A DNA stretch of 64,000 nt. Source: a virus. The notes under the pieces are model-generated. The model made no database searches and had not been told where the DNA came from. It saw only the letters and a program-made list of their open reading frames with translations. The stretch is from IMG/VR virus record IMGVR_UViG_3300047557_004430, one strand, 5' to 3'. The position numbers and the translations under genes were made by a program. Numbering within the stretch: position 1 is the first letter of the stretch; each line of letters begins with the position of its first letter. Below, piece after piece: positions 1 to 21,622 of the stretch.

Positions 1-630
1 TCAGGTAGGTCTGGTAGTTCAGGAACCTCAGGGTCTAATGGAAGCTCAGGTTCATCAGGTACATCGGGCTCAAGTGGTTCTTCAGGAACATCAGGCTCTA
101 GCGGTTCTTCAGGTACGTCAGGTACCAATGGTACATCAGGTACAAACGGCACAAGTGGAACATCAGGTTCTTCAGGAACATCTGGTAGTTCAGGTTCATC
201 AGGTACTTCAGGAACTAATGGTACGTCAGGGACAAATGGTACAAGTGGTACTTCAGGTTCTTCAGGAACATCAGGTTCAAGTGGTTCATCAGGTACTTCA
301 GGAACTAATGGTACATCAGGTACAAACGGCACAAGTGGTACTTCAGGTTCATCAGGAACATCAGGTTCAAGTGGTTCATCAGGTACAAGTGGAACATCTG
401 GGTCTTCTGGTACATCAGGTACAAGCGGTTCTTCAGGGACAAGTGGTACTTCAGGTTCATCAGGTAGAAACGGTAGTTCAGGAACATCTGGAAGTTCAGG
501 TTCATCAGGTACTTCTGGAAGCTCAGGTTCATCTGGTACATCAGGAACTAATGGTACATCAGGAACTAATGGTACAAGCGGAACGTCAGGTTCTTCAGGT
601 ACAGCAGGTTCATCTGGAAGTTCAGGACTT
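1..630 (+). repeat. Coding G-S-S / G-T-S / G-T-N triplet repeat (collagen/polyglycine-II-like)
   Basis: 9-bp periodic units such as ggttcatca, ggaacatca and ggtacttca. Confidence 0.9.
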
Positions 631-1110
631 GGAACAATTACTAACAACGTTAACAACTATGTCCTTACTGCGACAGGAACTGCGGGAACAATCAACGGTG
701 AAGCAAATCTTACCTTCGACGGTTCAACATTAACTGTTACAGGAGCGGTGAATATCTCAGGAGCATTAACCGCGGCTTCGAAGTCCTTCGATATCCCTCA
801 CCCAACAAAAGATGGTTGGAGATTGAGATACGGAGTGTTGGAAGGACCAGAACACGGTGTATACTTCAGAGGTAAAGTGACTGAAAATGTAATTGAATTA
901 CCTGAATATTGGACAGGTTTAGTTTATGAAGATTCGATTTCAGTAAACCTAACACCAATAGGAAATGCAAACCTACACTTTGTTGTGAAAATCGAAAATA
1001 ACAAGGTACATATCGACTCTGAGAATGGTGAAATAAATGCTTTCTTTGTGGTTAACGCTGAAAGAAAGGATGTTGAAAAAGTCCTTCTCGAATATAGACC
1101 AATTATTTAA
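1..1110 (+). CDS. 5'-truncated fibre protein: Gly-Ser/Thr triplet repeats plus C-terminal SKSF..LRxGxLEGPE domain
   Basis: Frame 1 is open from base 1 (SGRSGSSGTSGSNGSS...) through LGTITNNVNNYVLTATG...GEANLTFDGSTLTVTGA into the tracked 748..1110 ORF, which is in the same frame. The tracked 38..733 ORF is an off-frame shadow. Confidence 0.85.
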   Translation, partial: SGRSGSSGTSGSNGSSGSSGTSGSSGSSGTSGSSGSSGTSGTNGTSGTNGTSGTSGSSGTSGSSGSSGTSGTNGTSGTNGTSGTSGSSGTSGSSGSSGTSGTNGTSGTNGTSGTSGSSGTSGSSGSSGTSGTSGSSGTSGTSGSSGTSGTSGSSGRNGSSGTSGSSGSSGTSGSSGSSGTSGTNGTSGTNGTSGTSGSSGTAGSSGSSGLGTITNNVNNYVLTATGTAGTINGEANLTFDGSTLTVTGAVNISGALTAASKSFDIPHPTKDGWRLRYGVLEGPEHGVYFRGKVTENVIELPEYWTGLVYEDSISVNLTPIGNANLHFVVKIENNKVHIDSENGEINAFFVVNAERKDVEKVLLEYRPII

Positions 1111-1140
1111 GAAAAAATAAAATTAAACAAATCAAAAGCG

Positions 1141-19004: not shown

Positions 19005-19057
19005 GATTTATAAAATAATCCGATTTCTTATAATTATAGGATATAATAGTTCAATAA

Positions 19058-21622
19058 ATGGCCCCTATCATAAACCCTTGTGTATGTTATTCGCTAAGTA
19101 ATGATGGAGACCCGTCAAGTATAAATGTAACATCTTACACAGACTGTGATGGGGTTCCTCAAATTATTTCGAATAAACCTTTTGGTAGTTCAGCATCATA
19201 TTTTTGTGCTGAACAGGGTAGTGTAATATACTCAGCGGGACTTACCATAATGGAAGTACCTGACGGATTATTGACTTGTGGAAATTTATGTTCAACACCA
19301 GAGGTGACGCCACCATCAACACCTGCTTCTACTGTAACATCCACACCAACTTTAACACCTACACCAACAATAACAAGAACACCAACTCAAACCCCAACAA
19401 ATACAACAACCCCGACAAATACTATCACACCAACTCAAACCCCAACAAGAGGTAAAATAGTTTGTGGTTCAGGTACAACAACAGGTAATTTTTACTACAC
19501 TGATTGTTGTGGTACCTTCCAACAGGGTAGCTCAGTTGGAGTTATTGTTTCTTTAGATTACACGTTATCATTTAACGGAATAACTCTTCTTAATCAACCA
19601 GCCTCAACAGTTTGTGCAACACCAACCCCAACTCAAACCCCAACCTTCACACCAACTGTAAGTCCAACATCTACTAATACTCCAACACCAACAAAAACTC
19701 CTTTTGTAACACCTTCACCTACAAATACACCTTCGAATAGCCCTGTTTTCAAACCCAAAAATGAATGTGAAGTTTTCACTCTATTTGATATGGGTGTTTC
19801 GTGTAGTGTTCTTAGACAACCGTCCACAGATAAATCTTTCGATGGTATTCTAACACTTAGGGTTACAGGGGGTACAAGTCCATATTCATTCTATTGGTCA
19901 AACGGACAAAGAGTTCAAACGTTGGTCAATGTTGCTGCGGGACTATATCCTGTAACAGTTGTTGATTATTATGGTGATTATACTGCTAACACGGTTTGTT
20001 CTTTATTTGGACCAACACCAAGTATAACCCCATCACCTACAGTTACACCTTCTAGAACACCACAACCAGTCTATCCAAACATATGTTTCTTAGCCTACAA
20101 CAATACAAATCAAGTAGGACCTTCAACATTTGTTCAAAGCGGTACTCATAATTCAAGACCTAAATGGACAAATGCAGTTAACCAAAATATTGTTTGGAAA
20201 GGTACTAGATGGGAATTAGTTACAAGTGATTTATCAACACCAGTAAATCCTGTCGGTGGTGGTATATTCGGTTCGGTAACAACTACCTTACCACCAACCT
20301 CTAACTGGCAATTATTCGGAGGTACTCAAACATACAGTATAAACGTAACCTCAGGTTCATGTCCAGCAGTAACACCTCTTCAAGTGAATGTAACCACACA
20401 AAACTCAACATGTAACGGTCAAACAAACTGTGATGGTTCAATTAATGTTTCGGCTAGATTCGGAACCGCTCCATACGAATATTCTATAAACAATGGAACT
20501 TCTTGGCAGACATCACCGATATTCAATAACCTTTGTCCTGGTACTTACCCTGTGAGAGTTAGAGATTCTGCAAATGGTAACTTCAACCAAACAGTTCAAA
20601 TTAGTTTTGTGAGTACACCACAGACATATCAAATTAATGTCGTTACTCAACCACAGCTAACAACTGAAGTTAGTGCCAACGGAATAAGCACAAAAACAAC
20701 TTACTTTACAGTAACAAGTACTCCACCTGTACCTGCTGGAATTACATTACAATTCTTCCTAACCACTTCATCAATTAAAACATATAATGGACCAGGTACA
20801 GGAACTATTGTAGATAACTTCACAATATTACAAAATGGAATACCTAAGACACCATCTGTAACCAACTCAGCCACAGTAAACTCAACAAGACCAAATTGTA
20901 ATCCTGAAACACAACAAATTGTAACTGAAACAGACCAATATTATTTGGAACTATCAGACACCTCAACGGTATCAGGTTCAACGACATCTGTTCTAACAAT
21001 AACAAATGGTCAAGTAGGTAGTCAAAGTAATTGCACTACAGACCTATCTCAGACCATAAGCTTACAAGTTTCTAATCCATCTGTTAAAGGATGTGTTTGT
21101 TGTACTGCAGTTGCTGATAATACTCAGACACAAGTTAATAGTAACTCAGTAACATACGAAGGAATTGTCTCTGTACCACAATGTGTAACTTGCCAAGGAA
21201 TCATTTCATCAGGGAACATTTACTTGAATATGGGTTCAATTGTGGGCGGTTTGATTTGTACTGGACCAAATGCGACAGGATGTTACCAAAATTTCAGATA
21301 TAGTCCTGACCAAACTACATTATCTCTTGGTTCTGGTTTGTCTTCATACCCTTGTGGAATACAACCAAACTCAGGTGTACAGTATGTTCAAGCGAATTTC
21401 CAAACACCAACTAGCGATAACTATTATGTTCAAGCATTCGCATATCTAAATAATGTTGAGGTTGGTTCAGGTATTTTCAATGATTATTGTTCTATGGGAC
21501 AACTTTATAGTGTGAGTGTTAACATGTATTCACCAATAAATCTTGTTGCTGGAGACACGTTCAGAATTGTTTACACAGGAGGTTCAGCTTCGGGTGGTGG
21601 AGGGAACATTCCTGTGGCATAA
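19058..21622 (+). CDS. Virion surface protein with SprB-like repeats and Thr-Pro linkers
   Basis: DGILTLRVTGGTSPYSFYWSNG..GLYPVTVVD and CDGSINVSARFGTAPYEYSIN..NLCPGTYPVRVRD. Confidence 0.7.
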   Translation: MAPIINPCVCYSLSNDGDPSSINVTSYTDCDGVPQIISNKPFGSSASYFCAEQGSVIYSAGLTIMEVPDGLLTCGNLCSTPEVTPPSTPASTVTSTPTLTPTPTITRTPTQTPTNTTTPTNTITPTQTPTRGKIVCGSGTTTGNFYYTDCCGTFQQGSSVGVIVSLDYTLSFNGITLLNQPASTVCATPTPTQTPTFTPTVSPTSTNTPTPTKTPFVTPSPTNTPSNSPVFKPKNECEVFTLFDMGVSCSVLRQPSTDKSFDGILTLRVTGGTSPYSFYWSNGQRVQTLVNVAAGLYPVTVVDYYGDYTANTVCSLFGPTPSITPSPTVTPSRTPQPVYPNICFLAYNNTNQVGPSTFVQSGTHNSRPKWTNAVNQNIVWKGTRWELVTSDLSTPVNPVGGGIFGSVTTTLPPTSNWQLFGGTQTYSINVTSGSCPAVTPLQVNVTTQNSTCNGQTNCDGSINVSARFGTAPYEYSINNGTSWQTSPIFNNLCPGTYPVRVRDSANGNFNQTVQISFVSTPQTYQINVVTQPQLTTEVSANGISTKTTYFTVTSTPPVPAGITLQFFLTTSSIKTYNGPGTGTIVDNFTILQNGIPKTPSVTNSATVNSTRPNCNPETQQIVTETDQYYLELSDTSTVSGSTTSVLTITNGQVGSQSNCTTDLSQTISLQVSNPSVKGCVCCTAVADNTQTQVNSNSVTYEGIVSVPQCVTCQGIISSGNIYLNMGSIVGGLICTGPNATGCYQNFRYSPDQTTLSLGSGLSSYPCGIQPNSGVQYVQANFQTPTSDNYYVQAFAYLNNVEVGSGIFNDYCSMGQLYSVSVNMYSPINLVAGDTFRIVYTGGSASGGGGNIPVA

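Follow-up and report, generated by a model that had tools for sequence, protein, structure and literature searches.

Which substrate is served by a viral block of glycosyltransferases (GTs) and methyltransferases that lies between the virus's own fibre genes? The question is raised by a stretch of 64,000 nucleotides from IMG/VR record IMGVR_UViG_3300047557_004430, referred to here as the window, in which a minus-strand enzyme cassette at 6196-12289 is enclosed by plus-strand fibre-like genes whose products carry GSS/GTS collagen triplets or Thr/Pro linkers. A preliminary description of this DNA had reported the arrangement, and the layout and coordinates of the open reading frames (ORFs) and the Ser/Thr-rich character of the neighbours are borne out, as is the presence, within the multi-enzyme cassette, of a genuine TibC/Aah-type protein O-glycosyltransferase domain, recognised by its TIGR04414 match and its fold. 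To our knowledge, bacterial autotransporter adhesins are the only substrates known for the TibC/Aah family. The window belongs to a freshwater jumbo phage with a confirmed cassette, and among its relatives the domain accompanies one class of proline-free collagen-like fibre. With moderate confidence, we regard the cassette as a cytoplasmic protein O-glycosylation system for the phage's own fibres.

A TibC/Aah-type domain in a four-glycosyltransferase fusion

TibC and Aah are stand-alone enzymes of about 400 residues, whereas in the window the corresponding domain is the last of a fusion of four glycosyltransferases (Table 1). The NCBIfam equivalog profile TIGR04414 (Aah/TibC 'autotransporter strand-loop-strand O-heptosyltransferase') aligns over its positions 28-373 of 374 with residues 933-1262 of the fusion and scores 279.1 bits, the cut-off being 200, while the best lipopolysaccharide (LPS) heptosyltransferase profile, heptosyltransferase I, reaches 26 bits on the same domain. 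The TibC chain 4RAP_A aligns to the domain at E 1.4e-52. An AlphaFold model built with 33 homologues (predicted local distance difference test score, pLDDT, 90) superposes on 4RAP_A with Z 35.1 and a root-mean-square deviation of 2.3 Å over 333 of 336 residues; the alignments of LPS heptosyltransferases reach Z 18-20 and begin only at residues 52-59. The predicted architecture comprises an N-terminal flattened beta-barrel, a GT-B catalytic domain and a four-Cys finger, the first 50-60 residues corresponding to the TibC-specific beta-barrel that LPS heptosyltransferases do not cover.

Residue conservation was followed across 62 non-identical phage homologues, with residue roles taken from the TibC structure paper (PMC4358343). 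The equivalent of the catalytic base Asp110, D1001, is invariant (62/62), as are T1113, K1117 and W1181, which correspond to the phosphate- and sugar-contacting donor residues Thr226, Lys230 and Trp305. The putative iron finger is equally complete, with C1216, C1219, C1235 and C1247 standing for Cys339, Cys342, Cys358 and Cys370 in all 62 homologues, and position 300 is Ser, as in Aah. Invariance of the catalytic base and the three donor residues among such diverged homologues argues for retained catalysis. Characterised members of the bacterial autotransporter heptosyltransferase (BAHT) family are cytoplasmic, act on proteins and are encoded beside their substrate (PMC4358343).

The remaining parts of the fusion are assigned with varying support. 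Profile matches place GT25 at residues 58-134 and GT4 at residues 725-872, and no Pfam family is returned for the pieces 236-545, 540-730 and 930-1100. Because Pfam is empty for residues 236-545, the GT-A assignment rests on the fold: residues 236-540 give a confident GT-A prediction (pLDDT 91.8), D108 and D110 of its D-x-D motif are invariant in 30 homologues, and among solved structures retaining GT6- and UGGT-type enzymes come nearest, at a modest TM-score of about 0.5. The equivalent region of a relative matches PF04488. The separate GT9 protein lacks the TibC beta-barrel and returned nothing meaningful against solved structures; it was considered as a second TibC and rejected, its BLASTP match to the TibC domain reaching just E 3e-4. 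The FkbM-family protein, judged by its sequence, is probably a sugar O-methylase. None of the four enzymes contains a membrane-span-like segment in 20-residue hydrophobicity windows. Glycosylation of DNA by the cassette was likewise considered and rejected, with no DNA-base-modifying domain among the profile matches.

Relatives usually carry a fusion of GT-A, GT4 and TibC domains in this order, often with a GT9 gene before it and an FkbM gene directly after it. The GT25 module is rare, occurring only in L008, L010 and the window among the relatives compared. In one sister genome, G002, the region 311309-313182 (L164/L165) carries a much more diverged TibC-type gene of 40% identity in a 767-residue ORF, followed by a second copy with a TAA stop, which could be a decaying duplicate.

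Genomic coupling to Ser/Thr-rich collagen-like fibres

The TibC-type domain has 249 relatives in IMG/VR, the best 80 at 60-74% identity, and 3747 proteins of a large protein collection match it at E <= 1e-10. At every locus, Thr/Pro-tract ORFs and Gly-X-Y tracts were recorded, near-duplicates being removed and loci of at least 15 kb kept; the controls were 80 loci around a sigma-factor gene from the same phage group, 40 of which remained after dereplication and the length filter. A collagen ORF lies within 10 kb in 16 of 30 TibC loci and in none of the 40 controls (Fisher p 6e-8), a Thr/Pro ORF in 13/30 against 3/40 (p 6e-4), and one or the other in 23/30 against 3/40 (p 2e-9). Wherever composition was checked, the collagens beside TibC form a single class, proline-free, with Ser and Thr at 70-97% of X/Y positions and GTS and GSS as the commonest triplets.

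The reverse test started from 80 loci sharing the C-terminal domain of the fibre at 1-1110. Where this domain follows a Ser/Thr collagen (20 loci, belonging to at least four groups or lineages, with TibC identities of 39-71%), a TibC homologue is present within 10 kb in every case (20/20); where it follows no collagen or an ordinary collagen (60 loci), TibC is present in none (0/60). Co-occurrence of the glycosyltransferase locus with Ser/Thr-rich fibre genes across relatives, the comparison that the preliminary description had named as a check of its idea, is thus strong in both directions.

The fibre itself, whose 3' end opens the window, consists of about 210 residues of GTS/GSS/GTN triplets followed by the conserved C-terminal domain, with Ser and Thr occupying 89% of the X/Y positions of the tract and Pro 0%. 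The Gly-X-Y repeat is long and uninterrupted: 210 of its residues fall inside the window, tracts of up to 2868 residues occur in relatives, and the homologue in L202/L203 has about 2060 residues, of which about 1700 are collagen. By composition, the stabilising Pro/hydroxyproline or charged pairs of a collagen are found at X/Y neither here nor beside any TibC. The C-terminal domain is common to three genes of 1-6199 and matches phrog_17490/28536 and tail-fibre PHROGs, with no Pfam family; its 235 IMG/VR relatives are mostly on fibres lacking a collagen tract (L219-L278). Another class of collagen is encoded at 50896-59109, distant from the cassette, where three tandem fibre genes are of GAQ/GAT/GPT type with some Pro and Ser plus Thr at 16-25%; their homologues in G001, at 267.8-275.2 kb, are of the same low-Ser/Thr type.

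The pairing is also present in a cultured phage. In the Microcystis phage Mel-JY01 (PP395634.1, L279), a plus-strand ORF of at least 1016 residues contains 606 collagen residues with 79% Ser plus Thr and lies 1.7 kb upstream of a GT4...TibC fusion of 1227 residues. The GenBank record of this phage places two minus-strand 'hypothetical proteins', with Pro at every third residue, over the plus-strand collagen gene at 1-3052, which runs off the start of the record, and annotates the fusion just as 'methyltransferase FkbM'. Further instances of the pairing come from the 735-kb phage LR756501 and from a contig binned with an Ignavibacteriaceae metagenome-assembled genome (MAG); in a scan of species-representative genomes, only three MAG contigs had a match.

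Absence of the cassette bears on which neighbour it serves. G003, a complete sister genome of 309 kb whose sigma factor is 80% identical, carries neither TibC, GT9 nor any other component of the cassette, and it is also devoid of a collagen ORF and of the C-terminal fibre domain; six Thr/Pro-tract ORFs are kept. An unlikely alternative is that the cassette acts mainly on the Thr/Pro 'mucin-like' linkers of 2135-6199 and 12614-21622, with or without the collagen fibre. The protein of 2135-6199 contains 585 residues of Thr/Pro tracts (T 54%, P 17%, S 6%) with many copies of TPTTTTTLTATPTQ, Thr/Pro-rich ORFs flank the cassette here and are enriched in the relatives as given above, homologues of the module proteins adjoin it in L003, L006 and L012, and any of its several glycosyltransferase domains might start on Thr. 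These points are met by the retention of six such ORFs in G003, which has no cassette or GT9, by the many TibC loci that have a collagen but no Thr/Pro ORF, and by the Ser content of the tracts, just 6-10%, whereas TibC and AAH modify Ser, not Thr (PMC4358343). Other GT2 genes, present in all four sister genomes, could serve the linkers instead. The preliminary description had named Ser/Thr-rich fibres as acceptors; of these the GSS/GTS collagen is the best supported candidate and the 'mucin-like' linkers are the weaker one, the 2135-6199 protein being a possible secondary acceptor.

A second set of glycosyltransferase genes, of GT2 type and weak GT4 type, is present in G001-G004, including the genome without a cassette (about 82-93 kb in G001 and about 171-181 kb in G003). 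In these two genomes the set lies about 5-10 kb from Thr/Pro-tract ORFs and could serve the linkers or another target.

Proposed fibre glycosylation and competing targets

From family function and gene coupling we infer an acceptor, an order of steps, a sugar and a biological role for the fibre-directed system. The TibC/Aah-type domain would place the first sugar on Ser, possibly Thr, hydroxyls of the proline-free Gly-Ser/Thr-Ser/Thr collagen-like fibre ending at 1-1110. The fused GT4, GT-A and GT25 domains, together with the separate GT9 enzyme, would extend the glycan, and the two methyltransferases would methylate its sugars, giving a densely glycosylated fibre in which the sugars may also stabilise a proline-free triple helix. 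Roles of initiating, extending and methyl-capping, and a giant-virus-like glycocalyx, had been put forward in the preliminary description; they are kept here as what the enzymes might do. A bolder and less likely version supposes that fibres of up to about 2,900 residues are unstable as a helix on their own, and that the TibC branch glycosylates nearly every triplet, sugars replacing hydroxyproline, so as to yield a bottle-brush glycoprotein needed for folding and infectivity. The donor in this version would not be ADP-heptose, because the adenine-contacting Arg is replaced.

Several points weigh against fibre glycosylation. Substrates of TibC/Aah known so far are folded beta-helices, unlike Gly-X-Y repeats. 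The phage domain also departs from TibC at two functional sites. At the position equivalent to Arg286 (1162), 61 of 62 homologues have Thr and the remaining one Val, with no basic residue nearby; in TibC the Arg contacts adenine N1, is highly conserved in the family and is the proposed basis of ADP-sugar specificity (PMC4358343). The beta-hairpin thumb is mostly gone, with deletions of 6 and 4 residues in the pairwise alignment with TibC and a strand of only two residues in the model, whereas the TibC thumb (Phe265/Val266) mediates dodecamer assembly and is needed for activity (PMC4358343). Given the Arg286 to Thr replacement and the thumb loss, activity is not to be assumed. A search of five complete phage genomes that encode the enzyme found no sedoheptulose-7-phosphate (GmhA-type) isomerase, so that any heptose donor would come from the host. 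On the genomic side, a Ser/Thr-rich ORF is absent within 10-15 kb in 7 of the 30 dereplicated TibC loci and in LR756504, and the adjacency could arise simply because this part of the genome is a variable 'fibre/accessory' region. As a baseline the controls are lenient, being drawn from a conserved replication/transcription module, and shared ancestry among the loci means that the p-values overstate independence. Taken on its sequence features, the domain is a true TibC/Aah relative of a separate, thumbless branch, whose donor and quaternary structure may differ from those of TibC.

The same departures would fit a different target, such as host proteins, the capsid, the sheath or phage DNA, or a TibC-type domain serving as a non-catalytic scaffold, since the phage domain has lost a substrate-contact residue together with the oligomerisation thumb. 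The gene of some relatives is near sheath-like or lysis-like genes, not fibres, and DNA-glycosylating phage glycosyltransferases are common (PMC12619734). This reading is nevertheless very unlikely, considering the invariant catalytic base and donor residues and the lack of any likeness to DNA-base-modifying enzymes in the cassette.

That the cassette remodels a glycan of the host envelope during infection, be it LPS core, O-antigen or capsule, is quite unlikely as well; such remodelling could block superinfection or the sticking of progeny to debris. By family name, GT9, GT25 and GT4 are best known from the synthesis of LPS and surface polysaccharides, serotype-changing phage glycosyltransferases are established (reviewed in PMC12619734), and the proximity to fibres would then be due only to a region that collects accessory genes, in keeping with the 7/30 loci in which a Ser/Thr-rich neighbour is absent. 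However, the domain is far closer to the protein-modifying TibC clade, with its barrel and Cys finger, than to LPS enzymes (Z 35 against 18-20; 279 against 26 bits), and location alone would hardly account for TibC accompanying one collagen class in 20/20 loci against 0/60 of the others.

Fibre glycosylation can be set beside several known systems. TibC/TibA and Aah/AIDA-I (BAHT, TIGR04414; PDB 4RAP, 4RB4; PMC4358343) share with the phage domain the sequence family and fold, the catalytic Asp and the Thr/Lys/Trp contacts, and they also pair a cytoplasmic enzyme with a repetitive Ser-rich surface protein encoded beside it. Their neighbour is an autotransporter beta-helix, whereas that of the phage is a collagen-like fibre, no autotransporter family being matched in profile searches, and the additional glycosyltransferases and methyltransferases of the phage imply an oligosaccharide, not single heptoses. 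As far as found, mycobacteriophages are the only phages for which experiments have demonstrated glycosylation of the virion by the phage itself; glycosyltransferases encoded by the phage act there in the cytoplasm of the host and attach O-glycans to its virion proteins (Freeman et al. 2023, PMC10527164, as related in PMC12619734). As described there for actinobacteriophages, those glycans are carried by the C-termini of capsid and tail-tube subunits, which sets them apart from the BAHT-type domain and proposed collagen acceptor of the present phage. The 'Moraphages' paper (PMC12619734) mentions core glycosyltransferases in general terms only.

Glycosylated collagens offer further parallels. 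BclA of Bacillus anthracis (Daubenspeck et al. 2004, PMID 15152001; PMC6222408) bears many O-oligosaccharides ending in a methylated sugar on collagen-like Gly-X-Thr repeats and forms a hair-like layer; it differs in being a spore protein with proline-rich GPT repeats, modified by rhamnosyl and anthrose-pathway enzymes unrelated to TibC. Mimivirus combines both collagen-like proteins and a glycosylating enzyme in a virus (L230 and L71; PMC9614988), but L230 hydroxylates Lys and glucosylates hydroxylysine, whereas the phage collagen is almost Lys-free and would receive its sugars directly on Ser/Thr from a GT9-related enzyme. In the cuticle collagen of Riftia pachyptila, glycosylated Thr is described as taking the helix-stabilising positions otherwise occupied by hydroxyproline (Mann et al. 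1996, PMID 8757292, as cited in PMC11923368); this is an extracellular animal collagen with galactose on Thr, and its likeness to the phage fibre is by analogy.

Literature searches found nothing relevant on TibC or an O-heptosyltransferase in phages, nor on Mel-JY01, and the pairing, although widespread, is undescribed and unpublished as far as found. If fibre glycosylation is correct, a separate, mostly viral branch of TibC/Aah has Ser/Thr collagen-like fibres as a new class of substrate in very common aquatic phages, which would bear on how phages protect or tune their receptor-binding fibres, on the folding of proline-free collagen and on substrate recognition by BAHT enzymes. Mel-JY01, being in culture, makes the idea accessible to experiment.

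Start-region motifs, feature layout and origin of the window

The preliminary description had the enzymes made early, from a host-type TAnnTTTG box, and the structural genes under TATTTAT. In the window, TAnnTTTG has 80 matches against 83 expected, a chance frequency, and the copy at the cassette, 12294-12301, ends 5 nucleotides before the ATG. TATTTAT is not enriched overall either (22 sites against 17.9 expected), but 10 of the 22 sites lie 4-29 nucleotides upstream of a co-directional ATG, distances of up to 40 nucleotides being counted, where about 0.5 are expected; one is 25 nucleotides upstream of the 1173-2135 gene. The T4 late motif TATAAATA shows such placement in just 1 of 11 sites. 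TATTTAT is accordingly a candidate late-promoter or start-region motif of the phage group. Since TATTTAT precedes structural genes and the 59-residue ORF heading the cassette alike, a schedule of early enzymes and late fibres is unsupported by the sequence. The motif claim thus holds for the placement of TATTTAT near gene starts, and fails for enrichment of either motif and for the early timing. No terminator-like site was found between the 59-residue ORF and the cassette, a scan of the cassette for consensus sigma-70 promoters and terminators gave nothing useful, and the arrangement, if anything, suggests co-expression of the cassette with the fibre genes.

Table 1. Features at and around the cassette, with strand and basis of assignment
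Feature	Position	Strand	Basis or remark
Collagen-like fibre gene, 3' end, 369 codons	1..1110	+	translation; 5' part beyond window edge
Fibre-like protein, 320 residues, ending in the same C-terminal domain as 1-1110	1173..2135	+	
1354-residue protein: Cys-rich modules, Thr/Pro linker, C-terminal fibre domain as in 1-1110	2135..6199	+	
FkbM-family S-adenosylmethionine (SAM) methyltransferase	6196..6870	-	TIGR01444, 54.9 bits vs cut-off 37.7
Whole fusion, 1265 residues: GT25, GT-A, GT4, TibC/Aah	6867..10664	-	ORF and domain profiles
TibC/Aah-type domain, residues 931-1265 of fusion	6870..7874	-	TIGR04414, PDB 4RAP, predicted fold
GT4-type GT-B domain, residues 541-930 of fusion	7875..9044	-	PF00534 E 1.8e-11, PF13692
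GT-A fold domain, residues 236-540 of fusion	9045..9959	-	predicted fold, invariant D-x-D
GT25-like N-terminal domain, residues 1-235 of fusion	9960..10664	-	PF01755, 31.3 bits vs cut-off 24
GT9-family glycosyltransferase, 316 residues	10661..11611	-	PF01075, E 1.2e-9
Class I SAM methyltransferase	11645..12289	-	profile match; weak match to NanM-type sugar O-methyltransferases
59-residue ORF heading the cassette, same strand	12329..12508	-	TATTTAT at 12514-12520, 5 nucleotides before ATG
1719-residue protein, Cys-rich modules and Thr/Pro linkers	12614..17773	+	
332-residue protein, Cys-rich modules and Thr/Pro linkers	18006..19004	+	
854-residue protein, Cys-rich modules and Thr/Pro linkers	19058..21622	+	SprB repeats (PF13573)
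TATTTAT sites, examples	1141, 12514(-), 12593, 17780, 21637, 43943, 45027, 50869, 62058		

The three module proteins of 12614-21622 are probably structural. Further downstream, the window encodes T4-like genes, namely a primase, SbcCD-like gp46/gp47 and a gp55-like sigma factor. A search of the GenBank phage set with 20 kb of the window found no near-identical phage, and DNA of the window is present in freshwater, lagoon and estuary metagenomes from several studies. In IMG/VR the nearest relatives are complete genomes about 320 kb in size; one has terminal repeats, and its sigma factor is 91% identical. A 2.4-kb contig from a Lutibacter sp. bin (L284, CAZBGP010000228.1) carries a fragment 69% identical to the TibC domain of the window; together with the SprB repeats in 19058-21622, this contig from a Flavobacteriaceae MAG hints that the host may belong to the Bacteroidota, a binning artefact being possible.

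Spurious long ORFs arise from repeat DNA of the collagen type, on either strand and in several frames. Out-of-frame ORFs accordingly also overlie 1-1110, among them a 231-residue ORF at 38-733 (plus strand), rich in Gln, Val and His, which is an alternative frame of the collagen repeat and not a gene.

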